From Octopus vulgaris (taxonomy: Eukaryota), in assembly GCA_951406725.2 (NCBI GenBank), contig OX597816.1, positions 81,034,001 to 81,098,000 on the forward strand: a stretch of 64,000 nucleotides of DNA. The letters run 5' to 3'. This document shows positions 2,910 to 60,468 of this stretch, one piece after another. Each line of letters starts with the position of its first letter. Position 1 is the first letter of the stretch. Made by a program: the position numbers and the translations under genes. The notes under the pieces are model-generated. The model saw nothing but the letters and a program-made list of their open reading frames with translations. It had not been told where the DNA came from and did not search any database.

Positions 2910-5900
2910 TCCACACGCTAACGATTCTGCCAGCTTGCCAACTTCGCGAGTAAGCAAAAAAAGGACCACCAACATCATCGAAAAGTATTTATTCAATTTA
3001 CCTCTAGCAGTCTCGTCATATCGTTATTTGAACCAAGAACTAAAAGCTACAAGCTCGAGACGAAATACCGCAAGACATTTTAATCATGAATTCTGCTGTA
3101 TATGCCAGCTCTATACCCTTACTTATTCTTACATATGATATTCCAGAAATATGTTTCAATGAACGCTTTATTTAATTTACTTTCTTTTTTCTCTCTGTAT
3201 ATCCTATTTATTTTTCTACTACGTCTTTCCTGTGTTTGTTTGGTTGTATTTATTTTTCATTGCATTTTTTTTTTATTCTATCTAATCATGATAAACTAAC
3301 TGCAGGAATGCAGAGGAAAAATTGATTTGACATTTTTACTAAAGAACACTTTAGTAACTAAATTTAGGCTGCTGAAGAGAAATAATTTATATCGTTGGTT
3401 TATTTATTTATTTATTCAGATGTTATTTCTTTTTATATATTTATTATATTATATTTATCTCATTTTTTTTTTACCTAAAAATCGATTTACAGTGAAGAGG
3501 ATTTAATGAAATTCTGAAAGATATTTTCGATTAAACTTATATAAAATAACCAAACTTAAATATGAAAATAGCGAAGAATGGTGATGATGATGATGATGAC
3601 GATGACGATGATGACGACGATGATGATGGAGATGTCGGGATAAAATGGTAATAATTGCAGATTAGAATATAGCGGAGGATTAAATATCTCACAGACGACT
3701 TCGTTTGGTTGATTTTTGTCAGATATGCATTTTTCCATCTGAAAGACAGAAGCTACTGCTAACTATGAAGACAACGACAACGATGATGACGATAATGTTT
3801 ATATGGATATTTTATTTAAATCCAATAATTTATACAAGTTCATTTTAACCTTTTCATAATAAGAGTCATTTTCCAAATAATTAGTTTCGAATTTATCATT
3901 TGTTAAACTCTAGCTGTATTGGATTCATCAACGATAGCGAAGAGCAAGAGAGAGTTCTGGTAAATATATTATAGCAAGAAAAACAATACCCAAAATTATA
4001 GTTGGGTATTGTTGAAGTATTTAACAACACAACTGCTACACTGAAGCTTCTGTTTCTATGTAAAATGTAAATTACAGATGCAAAGCTAAAGAAACATCCG
4101 TCACTTGAACAGTACTTCTGCTGCTTATTCTAACAACATGATGCCTAATTATCGAAGTAAAGTGAATAAGACCATTAATATCTTCTAGGCTGGAAATCAC
4201 AGAAGACAACATAAGCTTTTGTGACGTGTGTGTGTGTGTGTGTTTCTACAATTTCTTGATTTTGTTTCCGCCATATATACAGTTGGCGAATCGACCCTAG
4301 TATATGATTGTTAATTAATTCCTTAGTCCTATAAAAATCGGAAGCAGCTTGAATCCTTGTGAGACTTTCAATCAGACTGTTGAAGAGCAAAACGAAATCC
4401 TCAAAGAGCAGTATTTAATCCAACGAACTTATGCTTTTACCAAACCAATTCCTTCTATAATGTTTCAACTGACCCAGCTAAAGAAAATAATGTCAATGAC
4501 GAGTATTGAGGTGGTTGAAATATGCTAAACACATGGTTAAACTGAGAGTAGATATCGTATTTAAAAAAAGTTTGTTCAACACTTCAAATTGAAAATAACT
4601 AATCAAAACTGAATGAGGACAGGAAAAGAGAGAAGAAGGATAGAGTCAGATACAATTAGAATTTGTATTGTAAGCAGTTGAGACATTGTTATAACATTTA
4701 TCTTCACGTCAAGCCTGTTGGGAGAGAACAAGACATTGTAATACTTTTTTCTTCTTTCTGGGTAGAATTTAATCAAAACAAGAATTATATAAGGAGCTTA
4801 TGTATGTGTTTCGGGGATTATGCTTCACTCAGCTCTCGGGAGAGAACAAGTCGTATACTGATTATCAGTTGATTCTGTTGAAGGGAAATGTTAATTTAAC
4901 TAAAATGATAAACCGATAGGAATTGGAACTTTTCGAGACTGCATTGCATATTCTCTCATTTTCTTGTTGCATCTTGCTTCTTTTTTACTTTATTTTAAAA
5001 ATATGTTAGAAGTGTTGTTCTTGTCTTTGTTTTTGCTGTAGTTGTTTAACCCTTCTGGACAGCACCAATCCAGAAAATTTAGGATAAAAAGTATTTTCAA
5101 GCATAATCCTCGATAAACTTATATTATCTAATGTGTGTTTCATTTCTTTAAGACTATGTAATTTAAGGGACTCCGTCCTACTATTTCAAGTAAGTCGAGC
5201 AGCTAATAATAAACATGAAAATTTATTATGAGAGAGGTGATTTAGAGTTGAGAACACTTATCGAAATTACAATAATGTAAAAAGAAAATGTCAAATTCGA
5301 CAAAAGTTTAATTCAAAAGGTGCAGAGACGAAAGAGAATAGCTTTTGACAAAGTACAGAGTTGTGTATTTTGAGGGAAGAATCAATTGTATAATTGTGAC
5401 ATCCGTGAACTGCATGTAGTGTAAGATGTAAAATGGAATAACTCCAACCGGGAATTGAAATAGAGTTGCGTCTGGTAAAGCGTAGCTCACTGCAAACGAA
5501 TGAAACACTTGATCATCTTACAGTACTACGACTACCTACACTGATGCACATTACCAGCCTACTGCACTTATTTATATCCTGTAAAGAGATTTTGTCACAG
5601 ACACAACACACCTCCGGGGACAAGTTTTGAAAAGTTGAACTACTGGAGCACAGTTAATTGAAATATATACATCACTTTATAGGTGTAGTGGAAGAATTTA
5701 TATTTCAAGACATCTGCCCTTAAACTGCTGCCGTTTCTTCTCCTCAGGACGAAGTCTATTTTGTATAGTAATTTAGTAAGACGTAGAGGGGAAAAGATGA
5801 AATGCGATGGAAAATAACGCTACAATCCGACGCTTATTCTAAACCGAACCGTGTCGTTCAACTGTTATTATAACTGATTCGAAACCTGCTTCTTTGAAAC

Positions 5901-8571
5901 TTTCTGGCTTTATGCCCGCTTCATCCTAAATCTCTTGATACTCACGATTTCCCCACTTCTCATAAATTTTATAACTTCTGTTAAAGCAAGTGTGTGTTAG
6001 TGTGTTTTTTAAGTGTGTGCATTCATCTGTATAAACTCGAGGGTGTGTACTTGCATTTTGCCTAGAAAGGATAAACCTTGCACGAACGTGTGAATTCTAG
6101 ACATATAGTCAATCAAAGACATTGAAAGATGCGAACACACGCATGCTTGCGTGTTCAGATTTGCTTTAAATGGTCAATGTTTGTTTGTTTCTATTCCTAT
6201 TCATTTAATACTTGTTTTTATTACTGTTTAGGTAGCGACGAATAAATCTCAGGACATCAGCAAAGTTTAGAATAATAATGCAAATATCTTGAAGTGTTTA
6301 AACACGGATGATGTCTTAAGCTAACAGAATTCAGTTAATTTTGCTTCTTACGCTGATGCTTCATATATATTTATATTGATATTTGTGTTGTCATTGATGT
6401 TGTTAATCTTCTTATCAATATTCGAATTTCAAAGAAGTTTAATCAGTGGGGAGTTTAAACAGAAGAATTAACGAAACAGTATTAATTAGACCTGAAAATA
6501 TCATCAAATATAAAGGAGGAATTTTTAATCGAAAAAACCAACCCATTCTGACGATTCGTTAATAAACACTTCGGTAGTTTCACGGAAAAAAAATTCAATA
6601 GGAATTGAAATGCAATAAAAATAAAAAATATAAACTATCATATTCAAACCAAGCTGTCGTGTAAAAGCGTCATTCTGTTAACAATCATCATATATGTTAA
6701 TCTAACTTGAAAGAGATTCAACACTATAAAAATTAAATGTATTATAATAATCATGTAATCACGTGTCTAACCAAAGTTTCGTACCTCATCTCCTCTTCCG
6801 GGAAAATTATTTTATTCTTCCAAACTAAATTTAAATGCACTTTAGCTCGCAGTAGTCATTTCCCCTCCACGCCATTTTGAAATTGTTTTTCGATAATTAC
6901 AAGAAAATTTCATTTCAGAAAATTCGAACGCAAATGCAAAAAATAAACACAATCAGTGTCTAAAAAAGAATAAATAAATATATAAAGGACCATATAAAAG
7001 ATCACAAGATAGTCATTATTTCTAATTTGTTGTTATGATCGTCAAAATGGAAGAAATAAAGGCAAAAGCAAGTTCCCTTTTTAAGTAATCTCCTAAACAT
7101 TGGAAAACTGAAGCAAGTACCTAATGCAAAACAAATATTATTTCTGTCTATAATCTCTGTACACATCCTTGTCCATCGAACTATACGTGACTTCTCAGAA
7201 GAAGGGGGAAAATGGAAGTAACAAATGCCTCAATACAAGAGAATCTATAACGAAAAAAAATTGTAAGAACCGTAGGATTTTGCCACCGAAAATAAACATG
7301 TAATTACACAAGCGAACTCAGATATTATCGACTAAAGCACGAAATGTAATGGCTGTCTTTTTTCTTCAAGCACAATAAATCGTGGTCCGAACAGATCGGC
7401 TTAAATCCGTTATTTGTTATTTGATCGTTTATAAATCCATAACTCAAGGATAAATAACGAGTTGTAACTACAAATGGAGGATTTGCTTTACTATATTTTG
7501 TTTATAATTTTCTTCTTTTTTTTTATAATTTGAATTGATGTCGAAAGGATAAATACTTCAAACTACTGTATGATTATTTTACTAGAATGTCAATAATACT
7601 TAGACTAAAGCGTAAAAGAAAAAGAAATATCGAAGATTAACTCTAATAGGTAGATTTATGAGTAATAAATGCAAATGGTGAACAAATCTATTCAAACAAA
7701 TCGAATAGCAAACACGAATACATCAACGAAAAGTAAAGACAGAAAGAAATGCCTTGTAGAACTAAGAAATGCGAAGCAAAATTACAGTTACTTCCGGTTA
7801 ATATTTTCGTTTTATTTGATTTTATAGATTTCGTTTTCTTTTGTTGTTATTTTCATCTATTTTATCTCAGATATGTTGATGCTTTCTTCATTTAGATAAA
7901 CAGCGAAGAAGCTATAAAGTATTTAGGCGACCATATAGAAATGTTAATGAGTTTATTAACTTAAATCCGTTTATTCAATTTCGTACAGTGTTTCGTGAAC
8001 AAGCATACAATTTAAAGATTTATCCAAATCTAAAGCCGCTCGGAACATTAGCTATTCAATATGTGACTAACGGTAACCACCCGTCAGTACACTTTGTCAC
8101 ATCACACCGTCTCCAATGTACTTCACACAAAGAATTTTTTTAACGAAATAAACAAATATCAAAAAGTAAATTCTCAATTTAAATAATTTGATGAAAATAG
8201 AATTATACATTAAATTTCCTCTAAATTTTATTTCCGTAATTCAATTTTCAATTAATTGAATTTTATTTAAACAATATTAGAAATGTTATTCAATATATTT
8301 AAGCAATATTTTAAAACGTTATTCAATATATTTAAAGTGAGTTTGCAAATTGTGTTAACGATATTTATTCAATGCGGTTTTTTGATTTGTTTTTTTTTTT
8401 CTGAGTACAGTTTTAAATGTTTTATTAAAGAAATCGTATAAAATTGTAAGTGGTAAGTCTTTGGCTAGACAAATAATGACCCAGTTTTGATTCCAACTAA
8501 AATCCTGCTTAATTCGCTTACACTGCTAATTTGATGGTCACATTTTTCAATTCATTCACCAAAAATGTATG

Positions 8572-8828: not shown

Positions 8829-10138
8829 AGGTTAAATACCTTATTTAAAAGTACCTTGATTTTTAGCCGCTGAACGAGGAAACAGACTCACATCGTTCCA
8901 GTCCAAATCAACTTGTTTTTGTATATCAATGTTATCCTGCTGCTTTTCATATAATATCTCATGATATGGGAGGAATTTAGCAAGAATTCTCATAAGTAAA
9001 ACTATGCCTTGATGGCCTGTATCGACATAGAAACACTGGCACTCACACATACATATGACGGATTGGTCTCCGCCGTTCGACGATTAGAAATCAGTTGTTC
9101 CATCAACTAAAGTACCTCCTCCTGAATGAGTGTATGCGGTTAAATATTCCAAAGACATGCGCATCCTTAGCATAATTTTCAGGCAGAATCTTCGTCAAGC
9201 AGTACTACCAAAGCTGCACCTTTTGAATTACGAGTGCAATCCACCCAGGCCTCTACACACTTTCTCTCGGGTCGACCCGAAGCTAAAAGAAATGAAGTTT
9301 GCCCCAGCTGTCATGCACTGGCATTGAACTTCTTAACTATTCGGCCATGCTGTGCGTACTGTACGTAGTTATACGCGTGTGCACACACATGTACTACACA
9401 CATACAAATACGCACAACAATATACACTACACACATTGATAGTGATAATTTATAAAACAAAAGAACACAACTTTGTAAGAATGTACTTTTATTGCTCCAT
9501 TCGACAACTCACGCAAATAATACATGAAAATTATTCTAAGCCACAAGATTTTTGAAACATTCATATTGTTGACATATTTTCAACAACCAATTTATATCAA
9601 ACTGACAGTAATGTAAATTGTCATTTGACAATCATTTTCTATGTACATTAGGTGAATTTTCATTGGAATAAACTACATATTTTAGATAAAATTATCATCA
9701 GGTATACGTCTACGATACGAGTAACTATGTCAGAATAGACAATAACGTTTAATCATCATATACGAAGCGCTTGACTTTTTAGTAAAGCTAATCACATCAT
9801 CATTGTGTTTTAAAGAAAGTGGTGAGAAAGAAATATCTTTGCATATTTTGAATTAGGAAAAAAAAGCATTACCTTAATTTTTCAACCAAACAATCAACTA
9901 TTTTGCACACAGATAAAAAAAAATTAGATCCATAAAATTAATCATATTGTATGAGAGTACTTTTTCAACGAGGTATTACAGCCTTAGGATATTTGCAAAG
10001 ATCTAATTTCATGACCTCTTCATATTTAAAAGTTGTACATATTGCAATCTTCTTATATTGTGTTCAGCGATGAACAAAAAGATAGCGATACGTATCGAGT
10101 TGAGAAAAATCTTTGACATATATTGCATCTGGATATCA

Positions 10139-13750: not shown

Positions 13751-14699
13751 ATTTGTCTTATCGCCGATGTTTGTACAAGAACCACTACGCACTAACGCGT
13801 TGACTTCTTTGAAAGTAAAGCATCATTCATCATTAAGGACAAATACAGAGAAGGGCTGAGAGAGAGAGAGAGAGGAGAGAGAAAGAGAGAGAACCTGAGA
13901 TGGAAACGAAAAGAAAAAGGAAAAGAGAGCAAGATCAAATAAAAGTGATATAAAGTCTATATATGTAGACTATATGTGAATGCCGGTGCAGCTGTTTTCT
14001 AATGCAAAGTTACTCGTTTTAGTAAACATGCAAACATGACGTTAATTGAAAATTATGGCGTTATGCAATTGGTATGCCACACATTATATTGAGGCATCGG
14101 TAGTTCGTTTATAATACATGCATGATATAGCGTAGTTCAGTAATATACAGTGTCATATTACGAAATTGTATTTCTTTCTTTCTTTCTTTCTTTTTTATTT
14201 AGTAACGGTGAAACACGTACAAATAACTTATAAACAAACATCGAAGATATAATCAAAGTTATATGATTCTGCAAAGTTCTCTGATAAGATAGCATTACAG
14301 ATAAATATAATTTTCTTTGTGATGAACGTTACATAATTCATCCAATATACACTTATGTTGTTTTGTTATCATTTATTATTATAGTTTGAGAAGGGTGTTT
14401 GATACCAGAGTTGGTAGAGTGTGGAAACACATAGCAGCATTTACATACATACATTTACATTCGAAGTTCAAATGCCACTAGAGTCAGCTTTACCCTTCTG
14501 AGGACAAACTAGATACTAGAGAGGTTACTGTTATAGACATAGTCAATTACATCTTCCTCTAAGATAATATAGAAAATATAATTATACTGAAGACGGTAAA
14601 TTGACAGAAATATTAGATAATCGGACAGAATGCCTAGTGATATTTGCACCGGCTCTTTATCAACCATCTGGTGTCGATAAAATAAACAAGTCAAGTTAA

Positions 14700-14931
14700 G
14701 GCCGCGAGCTGGCAGAACCGTTAGGACGCCGGGCGAAATGCGTAGCCGTATTTCGTCTGCCGTTACGTTCTGAGTTCAAATTCCGCCGAGGTCGACTTTG
14801 CCTTTCATCCTTTCGGGGTCGATAAATTAAGTACCAGTTACGCACTGGGGTCGATGTAATCGACTTAATTCGATTGTCTGTCCTTGTTCGTCCCCTCCAT
14901 ATTTAGCCCTTTATGAGTAATAAAGAAACAG
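14700..14931 (+). mobile_element. Full-length SINE family A
   Basis: Near-identical to 2909-2678. Flanked by the direct repeat ACAAGTCAAGT (14686-14696 / 14944-14954). Confidence 0.9.
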
Positions 14932-15479
14932 ATAACATAAACTACAAGTCAAGTACAGGGCTTTATGGAATCGATTAACCCCAACAACTAAAATAACTAA
15001 TTGCATTAAGACGCTGTTGAGTCCACTATTCATTCACAAAACTGAGACCGGGACTCGTTATTTTGATAAGAATAACCGTTTAATAACATCACTCGTAATT
15101 ATAAGAGACGGATTCTTTCCATATGCATTTATACACGCATATACACTGCTACATTCCCAATACCAACATACAATTCCATTAGCACCATCACCACCCACAC
15201 CAATACCACCAACATTTCCATACACATAGCGAGCGCTGGTTTTTATCTCTCCATAGATTATAGTGATTATGTCGCAATTTACTAGGAAATTTTTGTACCA
15301 ACATCCGGGACCTAAACTTTAAGAGGCGGTGAAATTTGAAATCCTTTTAAAGAAAGCGTGTGGGGCACACTAACCTTGGTAACAATAACAGCTCATTAAA
15401 ATTAATTTTCCGAATATATAATGAGCAGGTTTCTCTCTATACGAAATGGTATGTGTGTGTGTGTGTGTGTGTGTGCAAA

Positions 15480-23860: not shown

Positions 23861-23868
23861 AACAATCT

Positions 23869-24206
23869 GAGAGACCCCCTTCGGTCACGACACTGACCAT
23901 GGGATTGCACCTAGAAAGTTACCCTCCCAGGCCCAAGTCCGGGCAAGGTTGTTTATGGAAGACCAGCAGTCGCCCATGCTTACCGGCCTCCCCTCTCCAC
24001 ACCACCAGTGTTATCCAAGGGAAAGACAAAGGCCGATACAGCTTCGCACCTGTGACGTCGCAACTCATATCTACAGCTGAATGAACTGGAGAAACGTGAA
24101 ATAAAGTGTCTTGCTCAAGAACACAACACGCAGCCCGGTCCGGGATTCGAGCTCACAACCACACGATCGTAAGCTCGACGCTCTAACCACTGAGCCATGC
24201 GCCTTC
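23869..24206 (-). mobile_element. Full-length SINE family B (tRNA-Arg-like head, CORE-like block)
   Basis: Minus strand: A box TGGCTCAGTGG, anticodon-like loop TTACGAT, B box GCTCGAATCCC, then GTGTTCTTGAGCAAGACACTTTA. Other copies at 31669-31998 and 36028-36365. Confidence 0.88.
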
Positions 24207-24744
24207 ACTAACAATATAATATATATTTTATAGAGAGGCGGAATAGAGAACATGCATATCTATATAAGGTATGTGTGTATGCGCGTGCGTGTATTTATTC
24301 ATAAATCACAGGGATTACATTCTTAACTAAATTAAAAATCGGACCTTATCAAATGTTTCCCTTTATTTTTCGATTTCTTTTTCCATCACTTTGTCACTTC
24401 CCCTTTGGCTTTTTCCTTCACTTTCTACTTCTTCTCGATTCAACTACAACCTTTCTCATTTCTACTTGTCTGAATATTTCTGAATTTCCTGCCTTGCAAT
24501 CCAACATACTTACATTTCCCTTACTCTGTAATTTTACTAAAAGATTCCAGAGGTGAATGGTCATTTGAACAAGCAGTCAGAGAGTCCATCTAAGAAGAGC
24601 AGTTACGTAGCAGTTACGTAACTTTGAATATTATTTAATAACCAAGCACCGATGAAAATATTTCACGCCGTTACTTATTTAGAAAATGGCTTTTTTAAAG
24701 AGTAATAGAATATTTTATAGCTTTTTAAAGAGCAATACAATATT

Positions 24745-31119: not shown

Positions 31120-31490
31120 AAACAGGGCTTAGAAAAACTGAAGGGCCGTTGCAATAAGTGTATGAATCTCAGAGAGGAATATGTTCTTTTCTACTCTAGG
31201 CACAAGGTCCGAAATTTTGGGGGAGGGGCCTAGTCGATTAGATCGACCCCAGTATGTAACTGGTAGTTAATTTATCGACCCCGAAAGAATGAAAGGCAAA
31301 TTCTACCTCGGCGGAATTTGAACTCAGAACGTAAAGACAGACGAAATACTGCTACATTTCGCTCGGATTGCTAACGTTCCTGCCAGCTCGCTGCCTCTGA
31401 GAGGGAAATATCTTGAATAAAATCACAATTAACTCATCCTCCTGTATTTCCTTTTACCCAATGCCAGGAACTTTTCAGCACCACCTCGTA
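31120..31490 (-). mobile_element. Second copy of the mariner-type MITE, split by a SINE family A insertion
   Basis: TIR GCCAGGAACTTTTCAGCACCACCTCG-TA ends at 31490. The body continues at 31120-31184 and matches 1530-1610. Confidence 0.8.
31185..31395 (-). mobile_element. Full-length SINE family A (second tail type)
   Basis: Same head and core, with tail GGCCCCTCCCCCAAAATTTCGGACCTTGTGCCTAGAGTAGAAAAG. Degenerate TSD CTCAGAGAGGAATATGT / CTGAGAGGGAAATATCT. Confidence 0.88.
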
Positions 31491-31648: not shown

Positions 31649-31668
31649 TGTGTATGTGTATGTATATC

Positions 31669-31998
31669 TGGGGGACCCCCTTCGGTCGCGACACAGACCA
31701 TGGGATTGCACCTAGAAAGTTACCCTCCTAGTCACAAGTCTGGGCAAGGTGGTTTTATGGAAGACCAGCAGTCGCCCATGCATACCGGCCTCCCCTCTCC
31801 ACGCCACAGGTGTTATCCAAGGGAAAGACAAAGGGGCCGATACAGCTTGGCACCCGTGACGTCGCAACTCATTTCTACAGCTGAGTGAACTGGAGCAACG
31901 TGAAATAAAGTGTCTTGCTCAAGAACACAACACGCAGCCCGGTCCGGGATTCGAGCTCACAACTTCACGATCGTAAACTCGACGCTCTAACCACTGAG
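31669..31998 (-). mobile_element. SINE family B
   Basis: Closely similar to 23869-24206. Confidence 0.9.
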
Positions 31999-35138: not shown

Positions 35139-35196
<58 letters not shown>

Positions 35197-35219
35197 ATAT
35201 ATATATTTCTATATATATG

Positions 35220-35253
<34 letters not shown>

Positions 35254-35429
35254 TAATAAATATTAGGGAATAAATCCAAATTTACAGGGAAAAAATCAGA
35301 TTTAGGATTAAATCCAATTTTATAGTAAAATATTATAAAATATTATTAGAGACAAAACCACTATTTTGCAAAACAAACAAGGAAAGACTTAATCAATACA
35401 TAAATTTTAATAAATAGTCAAAAAAACCG

Positions 35430-35472
35430 CCACTACAATTGTTTCTTGTCTTGATCGACAATCTTCAGGTGG
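35430..35472 (-). ncRNA. Minimal type I hammerhead ribozyme (mirror copy)
   Basis: Exact reverse complement of 35533-35575. Confidence 0.88.
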
Positions 35473-35532
35473 ACTTCCAATAAGTCAGTTTCAAATTATG
35501 AAGTCATAATTTGAAACTGACTTATTGGAAGT

Positions 35533-35575
35533 CCACCTGAAGATTGTCGATCAAGACAAGAAACAATTGTAGTGG
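35533..35575 (+). ncRNA. Minimal type I hammerhead ribozyme
   Basis: CCAC (stem I) - CTGAAGA (core) - TTGTC gatcaa GACAA (stem II) - GAAA - C AATT G (short palindromic stem III) - TA (cleavage predicted after 35571) - GTGG (stem I). All conserved core positions and three helices are present. Confidence 0.88.
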
Positions 35576-35662
35576 CGGTTTTTTTGACTATTTATTAAAA
35601 TTTATGTATTGATTAAGTCTTTCCTTGTTTGTTTTGCAAAATAGTGGTTTTGTCTCTAATAA

Positions 35663-35718
<56 letters not shown>

Positions 35719-36027: not shown

Positions 36028-36365
36028 GTGAAGGTGCATGGCTCAGTGGTTAAAGCGTGGAGCTTGCAATCGGGAGGTTGTGAGTTTGTGAGCTCGATTT
36101 GCGGACCGGACTATATGTTGTGTTCTTGAGCAAGACACTTTATTTCATTTCATTCAGTTGTAGAAATGAGTTGCGACGTCACTGATGCCAAGCTGTATTG
36201 GCCTTTGGCTTTCTCTTGGATAAAAATCGATGCGTGGAGACAGGAGACTGGTATGCATGAGTAACTGCTGGTCTTCCACAAACAACTCTACTTGCTCTTG
36301 TGTCCGAGAGGAAGTTTCTAGGTGCAATCTCAATGTTATTCGTGACAGAAGGAGTCTTTACCCTT
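36028..36365 (+). mobile_element. SINE family B, older copy
   Basis: GTGAAGGTGCATGGCTCAGTGGTTAAAGCG..GTGTTCTTGAGCAAGACACTTTATTTCA..CTGCTGGTCTTCCA..TTTCTAGGTGCAATC. Confidence 0.85.
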
Positions 36366-42423: not shown

Positions 42424-45204
42424 GCCATCACTATTTTTCTTACTTTTGTTCTTTGTCATCTCTCTTTTCCACTGGCTGGCCTCTCTCTATTTCTTGCTGC
42501 TGCATTTTATAAATGTTTTGTGTTTCATTAGTATTCTATGTTCTTTTCTCATTCTTACTGAATACCTCTCACTCCTGTACCTCTCCTTTCTCTTTCCTTC
42601 TATTTCTTGTTCTTTGTATATCTCTCCCTCTCTGTGTATACGAGTACCGTCTCCTTCTGCTTCCTCTCTTTTTCTCCCTTTCACTCTCTCATTCTTCCTC
42701 TCCCCAACTCTATCAATTTTGAAAAGTTAATTGACGTTCTATGAAAATTTACCCTCATCTTTATCTTTATTGCTTTAGAGTTTTCTCTCTTCCTTACATT
42801 TGTCTTTCATTATACACTGTCTCTGTCTCTTTCCCTTATCATCCCTCCCTGCACGTTTATGCCTTGTTTCTCTTATATTTTTCTTCTTCCCTCATATCTT
42901 TTGACTTCATTTTTTGCAGGTTCTTTAATTCAAATGTCTTTTTTTTTTTTTTTAATCTCTTGTAATTTTAAACAGTTTCCTGATTTGTCTCATTGAAATT
43001 CTTAACCGAATAAATAAATAGAAAAACGATAAATTAAAATGCCAACTCTTTCTACAGGATCTGTCAATACACTGATAGAGGAACAAATGAACAAATTTGT
43101 TGCTGTAGGAGGAAAAGAAAAAGAATGAACAGCCAATCAGCTAATAAGGGTAACCTTGTATCTTTGATCTAACGTTTTCGTACACTTTATAACTACTGCC
43201 AGTCTTGAGAAGTCAAAATGAGGGGTTATAAAGTGTAGTTCCATGACACTTCATATCTCCTTCAATAGCTGATAACAGTCTGGCAGAAAACACTGACAAG
43301 CGAGAAGCTTCCGGTTAATAATAACCCTGGAAAGGGCATCAATGCTACAAATTACTAAGGACGCCTTTTTTGATAATATAAGGCTTTTTGTACTTAATCG
43401 GGGTAAAATTTCTACTAGTTACTGAAAGAACTACATGCACAGTAGTGTAAAAAAAATTAAGACACCTGTAAAATAGAGAAACCTACTGAATAGATTCACA
43501 GAGTTGGTCTTCATTCCTAACTGGAAGAATTTCGTGATATTTACGCAGAGAATGATTTTCATAAAATGACATGAGCATCAATACTTCACATAACTTCATT
43601 GAAGATATAGGGTATTATTACTTCGATTCGATACTATTCAGACAGCTCCAACTTAACTAATGTCAAACGTCCTTTTCTTAACTCCTGTGGACAACCCTAG
43701 CGATGTGCAGAGGGGATTTTGCCATCTGGCCAACCCAAAACATCCATAGATCCAGCCAAGCCTTCTGTTATGAATAGGTCGCTAGATTGAATAGTGGTGG
43801 AAAGAGATGGATATAAAGTTTAAGAGAAAGATGAAAAGAAAGGCAAGTGCCATGTAAGCCGAAAATGTGGCCATATATACCATCCCCACAACTGCCGCCT
43901 CTTCGTGCCAACAACGGCCGATACTCGGCTGTCAAATATGATATTTATTTTCTGAATGACGGAAAACCCTACAAAGATGGAAAAAGGGAAAAGAGGACAC
44001 GCACACACTGCAGACCAATGAGCAATCAATAATGATGTCTCTGCCGGTCAAGCTTCGGAAATATTTCTACGATCCTTACTTCTTGTAAGCGATCGAAATC
44101 GGTCGTCTTTTCTAAGTCATGGAAATTTCGCCGGTGACGGAATTCAGCCAGTCGACTGGGAAACTGACTGGCAGATCACGAGACCTCACTGGGCCATTCG
44201 GTCTTAGTAGTAATTGGTGGTATGTACAAAGTGCAGAAGAGTGATCGACACAAGCTAATGACCCTCGCATACCGGGAACTCCACGTTCTAAACGCAGATC
44301 GCTATCAGGGGAGGTGGTTGAAATGTTCCCTGCCCTTCTCGGACCAGAAAAAAAAACTCTTGCTGATACTTCTTCACATCTAATTGCATCACAGACTTTT
44401 ATCTCTCCGCCTCGTACGGCTTTCTGCTATTGATTCCTCAAAGAAACATTGCATTCACCAGCCAACCGGTCCAGACACAACGCCACGAGCCGAGCCAACA
44501 AATCACCCTTCCAAGTGACATCACCACTGCGCTGGTGACGGGCGCCGCTGAAAGGCTATGACGACAGAAGCAAAATCGACCGTAGCACCAGCAGCGAAAA
44601 GAACGGTGGCAGAAACAGTAAGCTAACAATACGTTGAAAGTTACCGACAACGGTTTTGGCGTCACTATATTGCCAAAACAACACTGAGCGACGCACTACT
44701 GAGGAGACCTGAATTTCATTTCTTATTGGAATAGACCGTTCGAATCGCCTTGCCAGCTCAACGACTTTGCTCCATCACTCACCACAATTAGGAACACCTC
44801 GATTGACTTACGTGTCTAAAATATCTAATTAACAATGAACAAAAATCAAAGACAGATTCCACAAATTTTCTTTTATTCACCCTCTTCAACAAGCGAGTAT
44901 TTGTATACATTCTAAAAGAAACCAATAATTGATAAGGAGCATGTCATGTTGGTCCTTAACGGTTGTAATTGCATCAGTTCGATCCCAATTAGTTGCTGAA
45001 CAGAAATTTATGAGGACGTATTCACTAGTGCACATCTTGCTTGAAATCTGTAATGGTTTACGTTGGTAGAAACAGAGGTAAAGTTGATTAAATCGACTCA
45101 GTATATAACTGGAAATAATTTATATCATCGTCGTCAGAGAAAAGAACATTAAACCAACACTATTGATGTCTAACACAGAACAAAGCAAATCTAAACTAAA
45201 TATT

Positions 45205-45416
45205 CTTTTCTACTCTAGGCACAAGGCCTGAAATTTTGGGGGAGGGGCCAGTCGATTAGATCGACCCCAGTACGCAACTGTTACTTAATTTAGCGATCCC
45301 GAAAGGATGAAAAGCAAAGTCGACCTCGGCGAAATTTGAACTCAGAACGTAAACACAGACGAAATACCGCTAAGCATTTCGCCCGGCGTGCTTACGCTTC
45401 TGCCAGCTCACCACCC
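45205..45416 (-). mobile_element. Full-length SINE family A (second tail type)
   Basis: Complete head, core and tail. TSD ATCTAAACTAAATATT (45189-45204) / ATCTACACTAAATATT (45420-45435). Confidence 0.9.
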
Positions 45417-58974: not shown

Positions 58975-59026
<52 letters not shown>

Positions 59027-59040
59027 CATCATCATCATCA
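58948..59040. repeat. (TAA)n(TTA)n(TCA)n tract
   Basis: Lies between the Dong 3' end and the tail of an oppositely oriented SINE. Confidence 0.95.
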
Positions 59041-59044
59041 TAAT

Positions 59045-59251
59045 CCTTTCTACTAAAGGCCAGAAATTTTAAGGGAGGGGCCTAGTCGATTACATCGGTC
59101 CAGTGTTTCACTAGTGCTTAATTTATCGACCCTCGAAAGAATGAAAAGCAAAGTCGACTTCGGTGGTATTTGAACTCAGAATGTAACGAAGGGCGAAATA
59201 CCGCTAAGCATTTTGCCCGGCGTACTAATGCTTTTACTAACTCGCTGCCTT
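59045..59251 (-). mobile_element. SINE family A (second tail type)
   Basis: CTTTCTACT..GTCGATTACATCG..GCAAAGTCGAC..TTTGAACTCAGAA..GCTAAGCATTTTGCCCGGCG..CTCGCTGCCTT. Confidence 0.85.
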
Positions 59252-59769
59252 AACAATAATAATAATAATCATACATACATGCATGTGTGTTAGTGTGTGT
59301 GAGTGTGTGTGTGTGCATGTGTAAAGGAGATACAGATAGGAGACTTCCTGTTGTAAGGCAGATGCAAAGTAAAATAAAAAATAAATAATGGAAGAATGTT
59401 TGGAAAGGAAATAAAAATAAACCTTATCTCCCCAAAAGACATATCTCTTTAGAATTAATTAAACAAAACTGATGAGCTACTTAATAAGATGTGAACCATG
59501 TGCCTGGTGAGGAAATCTTATCCAGCTGCTGCTCAGTAGAAATATACAAACATCAACATTAAAAATATATATATATAGTATAAGACATTAGCGCAGGATG
59601 CCTCTAAGATAACAATTAGTACCCGATATCATCATTACCATCATTATTGTCATATCATTATCATTATCATCATCGTCATCAATATTAACCACCACACAAC
59701 CACCACCAAATCGTCATTTGCATCATCTTCACCACTACCATCATCATTAATGTGCTATCATCATCATCA

Positions 59770-60087: not shown

Positions 60088-60129
<42 letters not shown>

Positions 60130-60134
60130 GTTAT

Positions 60135-60468
60135 TCCAAGTTTTGGCACAAGGTCAGCAATTTTAGGGGAAGGCGTAAGTCGATTACATCGACCCCAGTG
60201 CTCAACTGGTACTTATTTAATCGAACCCGAAAGGACTGAAAGGTGAATCAACCTCCGCTCAATTTGGACTCAGAACGTAAAGACGGACTAAATACCGCTA
60301 AGCATTTTGCCCGACGGCATTTCGTCACTTCAAGTTCTGAGTTCAAATTCCGTTGAAGCAGAGAAGGTCTTTCATCCTTTCGGGGTCGATAAAACAAGTA
60401 CCAGTAGAGTACTGGAGTCGATATAATCGAGTAGCCCTTCGTGCAAAATTTCAGGCCTTGTGATTATT

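Follow-up and report, generated by a model that had tools for sequence, protein, structure and literature searches.

A perfect ribozyme-bearing palindrome in the octopus genome and its likely origin from the spliced leader RNA of a Penelope-like element

A perfect palindrome set between (TA)n repeats in the window, as we call the whole 64-kb stretch of octopus DNA analysed here, is almost certainly a head-to-head pair of intron-less 5′ leaders of a young Penelope-like element (PLE). Both the parentage and the spliced origin are covered by this confidence. We further consider it likely that one spliced sense RNA was reverse-transcribed twice, from two fixed internal sites at one (TA)n cut. The window locus by itself is probably a functionless insertion. 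Published work is cited below for the parts of each source that were available.

Results

Architecture of the palindrome

The inverted repeat consists of two arms of 164 bp each, at positions 35338-35501 and 35504-35667, with no mismatches and a 2-nt spacer. A palindrome scan of the window confirmed this description, which had been given in an earlier note on this DNA, and among the palindromes listed it was the sole perfect non-simple one with arms of at least 25 bp. It folds as a hairpin of −277 kcal/mol. The (TA)n flanks that the note had described on both sides are likewise present: the left target repeat spans 35140-35252 (Tandem Repeats Finder (TRF) call, 35140-35263) and the right one 35668-35718 (TRF call, 35662-35718). 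Two features had been missed. The left arm extends about 85 nt past the palindrome (35253-35337), forming what is known in PLEs as the ‘tail’, and each arm contains a splice junction, at 35523|35524 on the plus strand and at 35482|35481 on the minus strand.

We number the leader from its inferred transcription start, +1, which lies at 35504 in the long arm of the window. In blastn comparisons with a leader derived from locus L083, the long arm (35253-35504, minus strand) corresponds to the spliced leader of the parent element from +1 to about +254 (query 1-254 at L001, 99%), and the short arm (35504-35667, plus strand) to +4 to about +168/172 (query 4-168 at L001, 99%). According to the scan and blastn, the tail (minus strand) covers about +169 to +254, is present on one arm only and lies between two inferred reverse transcriptase (RT) start sites; in full-length copies its sequence runs on towards the ATG at +311. 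Exon 1, of 23 nt, occupies 35482-35504 (minus strand), as delimited from the parent copies L031, L033, L035, L036 and L048, which have an initiator-like TCACTTC before it and GTAAGT after it. In the short arm, the exon 1/exon 2 junction falls at 35523-35524 (plus strand; mirror 35482/35481), where comparison with long copies reveals the absence of a 1.8-kb intron. The head-to-head joint at 35502-35505 is of the +1/+4 type with 1-2 nt of microhomology, and this is the commonest joint type of the family (12 of 87 simple pairs). A stretch at 35590-35617 (plus strand; mirror 35388-35415) carries a 1-nt deletion common to both arms; it has four exact matches in the genome, two of which are the window's own arms.

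The hammerhead ribozymes

A minimal type I hammerhead with a palindromic stem III is found on each strand, as had been claimed, at 35533-35575 (plus strand, predicted cut after 35571) and in mirror image at 35430-35472 (minus strand, predicted cut after 35434). The CUGANGA / GAAA / UH core and stems I-III are present, and a relaxed type I descriptor found these two sites alone in the window and none in 60 doublet-shuffled windows. An Rfam search of the window returned no hammerhead match, and its sub-threshold miRNA hairpin matches occur because the palindrome forms a hairpin. Two strands of the ribozyme co-fold as a dimeric hammerhead (MFE −22.0 kcal/mol), which agrees with the dimer-type ribozyme proposed earlier; the best fold of the monomer leaves the core unclosed, and the leader folded alone has no unusual structure (z = −0.06) and does not form the hammerhead as a monomer. 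Among the three subfamilies compared, the core and stems I-II are invariant, loop II and N7 vary, and no compensatory change was seen in the stems; among the variants of stem III, the most frequent (46 of 267) still pairs, through G-U. Because any transcript across the locus would fold into one 164-bp hairpin, the two predicted ribozymes of the window copy are likely to be inert.

Most cDNAs of the family extend through the predicted cut at +71, which means that their templates were uncut at the hammerhead. The hammerhead motif of PLEs is described as dimer-dependent, so uncut templates are expected (PMC4209133). Eight arms at seven loci, including both arms of L292, are truncated exactly at the predicted cut (start at +72), against control starts of 2 at +69, 2 at +74, 0 at +75 and 3 at +145, a position in the same TAGTGG context. 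This test was post hoc. Because the neighbouring positions are also raised (about 6 starts at +70, 5 at +71 and 8 at +73, numbers that TA microhomology can produce) and subfamily B did not repeat the excess (1 vs 1), we regard the modest surplus of starts at the cut (L289-L296) as at most suggestive of a trace of cleavage in vivo.

The parent element and its protein

The 43-nt ribozyme has 492 exact copies in the 2.8-Gb genome. Long copies containing fragments of RT and nuclease were reached through ribozyme pairs lying far apart, and full-length copies through a search with the ORF. The linkage to an RT plus GIY-YIG ORF, suggested in the earlier note, is supported by these copies. A complete tandem unit of 6.0 kb is found at L081, with exon 1 at 1085, exon 2 at 2926, the ATG at 3212, the stop at 5728, a second exon 1 at 7083 and a second exon 2 at 8922. 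The parent has a single ORF of 840 aa comprising RT and GIY-YIG. Open frames of at least 838 codons at 8 of 30 ORF loci, together with a median identity of 99.0% between 156 arms and a single-copy reference, indicate that the family is young, in keeping with the young multi-copy family that had been anticipated.

On its predicted structure (mean pLDDT 84.2), for which the top nine Foldseek matches are telomerases, the 840-aa ORF would encode a telomerase-like RT. Pfam gave no RT match for the parent protein and an RVT_1 match in 1 of 10 aligned homologs. A GIY-YIG-like segment (VVYK...YIG, residues 710-735) is conserved at the motif level in homolog alignment A1; the GIY-YIG domain had no Pfam or PDB match, and a sequence search of the parent protein against the PDB gave 0 matches. 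The protein also bears the marks of the Hydra clade, namely SDKT at 127, CTCRDKSNC at 691, CYLC at 797 and CRH at 826, as well as YRDD; in the RWK motif column it has KWK at 43, and its homologs have RWK or RWR. Partial-tandem pseudo-LTRs, an inverted truncated copy and a one-sided tail are seen in L081, L282, L284 and L288. The (TA)n repeat lies at the 3′ flanks of the arms, and the ribozyme layout agrees with rows of File S2 of PMC8557442. Judged by these sequence features, the parent is probably a young, intact PLE of the Hydra clade, and the earlier proposal of a Penelope-type hammerhead with a (TA)n target is borne out by it. Between the RT and the nuclease of P0001 (L057), residues 490-610 form an Asn-rich (43%), low-confidence, frame-keeping insert; comparable inserts have been described for rotifer Penelopes (PMC3846280).

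There are two sister subfamilies, B (L211-L240) and C (L241-L278), with 127 and 239 exact ribozyme matches, respectively. In each of them exon 1, the GT donor and loop II are distinct, the tail is the same, and both spliced and unspliced copies occur.

Intron, donors and leader start

The 23 nt with which the arm opens are found, in long copies, 1.8 kb upstream of the remainder; GTAAGT follows them, and TTTTAG precedes the remainder. The intron measures 1805-1830 nt, or 2345-2360 nt in a variant form. The window joins exon 1 to exon 2 exactly, with precise loss of the GT-AG intron. Exact matching across the genome gave the spliced junction 339 times, the unspliced acceptor 299 times and, 34 times, the junction of a second donor (donor+4), a GT located 4 nt downstream of the main donor and used in about 9% of spliced arms. 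From sequence alone, this pattern speaks for removal of the intron by RNA splicing.

Exon 1 begins inside TCACTTC, a sequence that fits the initiator consensus. The motif TCACT has been named initiator-like in a rotifer PLE (PMC3846280). There are 57 copies complete to the inferred start base, and 5 of 56 arms examined extend upstream of +1, the longest by about 280 nt. A few spliced copies start upstream (L279:7382-7836, L280, L106 and L281), pointing to minor upstream starts or to spliced read-through RNA. We dropped a G before +1 (31 of 56 copies) as evidence of a cap, as it is mostly explicable by the partner arm or by microhomology; clean cases of an extra G are few (L171, L184 and L195). 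The promoter and exon 1 region is tandemly duplicated about 1-1.2 kb apart in L032, L038, L087 and L288, with some altered donors, and the intron itself contains diverged repeats of this region.

The intron is retained in long copies and lost in short ones, including that of the window. Each of the nine copies that carry both the ATG and a leader is unspliced, and five more ATG-bearing copies are truncated. No spliced copy among those fetched reaches the ORF, and none extends beyond +266. In contigs from three presumed-RNA runs and one presumed-DNA run on exon 2/ORF start, we found no joints and no leader-ORF piece. The same four haplotypes recur at 25/8/6/2 in unspliced arms, 90/21/13/5 in main-donor spliced arms and 16/8/2/5 in donor+4 arms, from which it follows that splicing and copying were repeated and did not take place once in a master copy.

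Arm ends, pairing and joints

Two clusters of 3′ ends can be distinguished among the arms, one at +161 to +178 and one at +247 to +262, with edges made indistinct by TA microhomology. In a sample enriched for copies containing the junction or the ribozyme, 98 of the 100 classifiable inverted pairs combine a long arm with a short one (binomial, 4e-27); one pair is long+long and one short+short, both at three-armed loci, and two more pairs are unclassifiable. The same rule holds for unspliced inverted pairs (10 of 10). Set aside from these counts were L130, which has an internal deletion, and the complex loci L172, L180, L190 and L209; L012 and L186 were counted as single, their partner arms being too broken; one of the 98 pairs belongs to subfamily B (L137); and L003 and L198 were counted as one event on account of their shared flanks. 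These last two loci (G000:C29), about 45 kb apart, have identical 5′ flanks and are probably a segmental duplication.

The short arm is more complete at its 5′ end in 28 pairs and the long arm in 19, and in 51 pairs they are within 10 nt of each other. The joints of the 87 simple pairs comprise 63 that overlap by 1-6 nt, 7 that are blunt and 17 with filler. Fold-back points vary from locus to locus; the +3/+12 joint occurs in 8 of the 87 pairs, and in 4 both arms are complete to +1. Haplotypes shared by both donors, together with these locus-specific fold-back points, indicate that the short copies were made afresh from the spliced RNA of the parent. The earlier note was therefore right about the ribozyme, the target, the youth of the family and the link to an ORF, but its view of the palindrome as a self-standing element consisting of nothing but a fold-back terminal repeat, with a spreading family of its own, was not supported, since the haplotypes are common to unspliced parents and the fold-back points are locus-specific; it had also overlooked the removed intron.

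One template for both arms

In nine pairs both arms show the donor+4 junction; L155 can be read either way, and no pair is plainly discordant. The probability of nine such concordant pairs would be 4e-10 if the arms were independent, and they are spread over four haplotype backgrounds. With regard to splice form, in the part of C1-C4 present in both lists, 27 pairs are unspliced on both arms, 19 are spliced on both arms, and 0 of 46 are mixed. Common variants are nearly always on both arms, being confined to one arm in L134 and L138. The rare donor acts as a barcode for each molecule: it marks the template as a sense RNA that had been spliced, and it ties both arms to one RNA. Cell-specific splicing or conversion between the arms could also produce concordance; the differences between arms (81 private vs 32 shared) argue against general conversion, although they would be compatible with some. 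The rare deletion shared by the arms of the window fits self-copying as well as a change at the RNA level.

The surroundings of the window and of other copies

Pfam searches of 100 of the 160 reading frames of the window yielded nothing useful and identified no host gene. A dispersed repeat of about 330 bp, SINE-like in appearance, occurs three times (36028-36352, 23865-24208 and 31666-31998; 75-93% alike), one copy lying 360 nt to the right of the palindrome. Another dispersed repeat, about 180-240 bp long, is found at 2494-2860, 14698-14934, 31181-31396, 45200-45409, 58992-59254 and 60088-60316, once as a tandem pair. Elsewhere in the genome, the reading frame L033:95-646, which adjoins a copy of the family, has what we take to be a resemblance to a Cys-loop receptor exon, and some family copies would on this basis be intronic.

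Discussion

By what route could one spliced RNA give rise to two opposed arms with different ends? We consider it likely that it was copied twice, in the following manner. The protein of the element would cut the (TA)n repeat, and from each of the resulting ends a cDNA would be primed on the one RNA, with one start near +172 and a second near +255. Synthesis of both cDNAs would proceed in the direction of the cap, the leading one being displaced by the one behind it; microhomology would then join the two 3′ ends, which would be filled in. The template would be sense, spliced and uncut at the hammerhead. As the two start sites lie 5′ of the ORF on the spliced mRNA, such RNA would yield only ORF-less stubs. 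Long copies would need a read-through RNA on which priming takes place in the downstream repeat; if the intron of that repeat is rarely spliced, this would explain the retention of the intron in long copies. In vitro, the protein of a Poseidon PLE cuts and extends both strands of an AT-rich DNA target and initiates reverse transcription at two internal sites, which mark the limits of the tail, and mutations of the ribozyme are without effect (PMC11167929).

The main rival to priming at two sites begins with the same spliced sense RNA: the first cDNA would fold back on its own 3′ end and copy itself, and a second priming would close the far end. Self-priming has been proposed for PLE palindromes (PMC3846280), and it would account for arms that are alike in splice form and in rare changes such as the deletion in the window. 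Many joints fit it equally well, and those of the +3/+12 and +8/+8 types sit on a small exon 1 hairpin. The commonest joint, however, leaves a 2-nt loop. Such a loop is too tight for snap-back priming, and the four pairs complete to +1 on both arms are also difficult for this route. Nor can a single fold-back of a long first strand yield all pairs, because in 28 of them the short arm is the more complete and a long first strand cannot have templated it; moreover, the fixed second end still requires a second priming site. We therefore consider this route rather improbable. Two RNA molecules, one for each protein subunit and each giving one arm, would explain most simply how a single stretch came to be copied twice, and the 81 private differences between arms, as well as the possibility that L155 is donor-discordant, could be read in this way; the concordance of the rare donor on four backgrounds and the absence of mixed pairs nevertheless make it very improbable.

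A different kind of explanation would derive all short copies from one intron-less master copy, as a self-propagating non-autonomous family of the retrozyme or SINE kind. Hundreds of near-identical short copies with an initiator-like motif at the 5′ end might suggest as much, and retrozymes derived from PLEs exist (10.64898/2026.07.22.740005). Given that the same four haplotypes are found in unspliced, main-donor and donor+4 arms, that the joints vary by locus, and that the copies occur inverted or singly rather than in tandem, with their starts 70 nt upstream of the cut site, we rate this a shade lower even than the two-molecule explanation. For head-to-head PLE palindromes and for intron retention, an antisense template with self-priming has been published, argued from palindromic junctions and stated there as unproven (PMC3846280). 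A GT-AG intron in the sense orientation could not be spliced out of an antisense RNA, and the 339 and 34 exact spliced junctions, many of them in palindromes, exclude such a template for the spliced copies; for the unspliced long copies it is possible, though these show the same two end points. As an account of the family its probability is close to nil, and we give no higher standing to a fold-back artefact of library or assembly. Perfect palindromes can indeed arise as chimeric reads, but here the ends are asymmetric and lie at the two fixed sites of the family, the flanks differ on each side, and the joint type recurs at 12 of 87 loci.

Much of what surrounds the proposed double priming of one RNA is already known in PLEs, including inverted hammerhead pairs, the one-sided tail and an intron in the 5′ UTR (PMC4209133, PMC3846280, PMC2377424 and PMC8557442). 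The marks given for the Hydra clade are a GIY-YIG-type C-terminal nuclease, DKT, YRDD, a CxCx5C linker, CxxC and CxH; the octopus family shares these protein marks with the clade, together with (TA)n targets and a type I hammerhead with a palindromic stem III (PMC8557442). By eye, Hydra-2_Amil reads almost like homolog P0018, which is 35% identical to the parent protein (PMC8557442). In contrast, the octopus parent unit is 6.0 kb long, against less than 3 kb in Hydra, and has a leader intron of 1.8-2.4 kb, the Asn-rich insert and K for R in RWK (PMC8557442). Hydra-1_Obim, also from an octopus, differs in protein and ribozyme (supplement of PMC8557442). In the available parts of PMC8557442, no mention of an intron or of spliced copies was found for Hydra.

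The inverted pLTRs described for EN+ PLEs resemble the octopus pairs in being head-to-head, with a tail at one end and microhomology joints, whereas the octopus arms are spliced, have the inferred cap site as their start, and bear a tail about 85 nt long instead of 30-40 nt; in the octopus family, the pairing rule and the single-template origin could also be counted (PMC3846280 and PMC8557442). The Anolis Poseidon element PAc is similar in its two internal RT starts bounding the tail, in the cutting and extension of both strands, in its AT-rich target and in its uncleaved RNA; its start sites lie within the ORF, whereas those of the octopus lie in the 5′ UTR (PMC11167929). Inverted copies, splicing and the use of one or two templates are not addressed for PAc in the parts of PMC11167929 available. 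Penelope of Drosophila virilis has its start and an intron in the pLTR, with the intron just upstream of the hammerhead, as in the octopus, and most of its transcripts are spliced (PMC2377424 and PMC4209133). Intron retention has there been attributed to selection or to an antisense template, and the available parts of these sources describe no intron-less genomic copies, whereas in the octopus the spliced junctions outnumber the unspliced acceptors (PMC2377424 and PMC4209133).

Like the window copy, non-LTR retrozymes are non-coding, 150-300 nt in size and PLE-derived, with a type I hammerhead; they are, however, tandem direct repeats that give rise to circles, whereas the window contains an inverted pair whose arms begin at the start site and continue across an uncut ribozyme (PMC7761336 and 10.64898/2026.07.22.740005). 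The tandem direct repeats of a retrozyme are absent here, there being an inverted pair with one ribozyme on each strand, and spliced copies are inverted or single. At one other locus (L148:1490-1800; G000:C5:64451613-64451848), three spliced donor+4 leaders with the hammerhead lie in direct tandem, 107-109 nt apart. This natural array, which should be dimer-competent, has the look of a nascent retrozyme that is arising out of a PLE stub.

A 2026 annotation of octopus repeats reports recently active Penelope families, yet the words ‘hammerhead’, ‘ribozyme’ and ‘intron’ are absent from its main text as available. In the literature covered, which was mostly non-subscription and from which several founding papers were missing, we found no report of intron-less or spliced PLE copies, of twin priming or of a single-template test. 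Intron retention and the formation of head-to-head repeats are stated as open questions for PLEs (PMC8557442 and PMC3846280).

We give about even chances to the wider reading in which one RNA is primed from both cut ends, the spliced mRNA is a dead-end template, read-through RNA propagates the element, and the excess at the cut site is a trace of cleavage. With an intact parent at hand, and with its two start sites placed to about 10 nt, the model could be tested directly by the assay of PMC11167929. If it is true, one geometry would explain the inverted repeats, the one-sided tail and the retention of the intron, with no need for an antisense template or for selection. The family would then be a record, kept in the octopus genome, of the Penelope insertion reaction, in which the translated mRNA gives rise only to palindromes of its capped leader.
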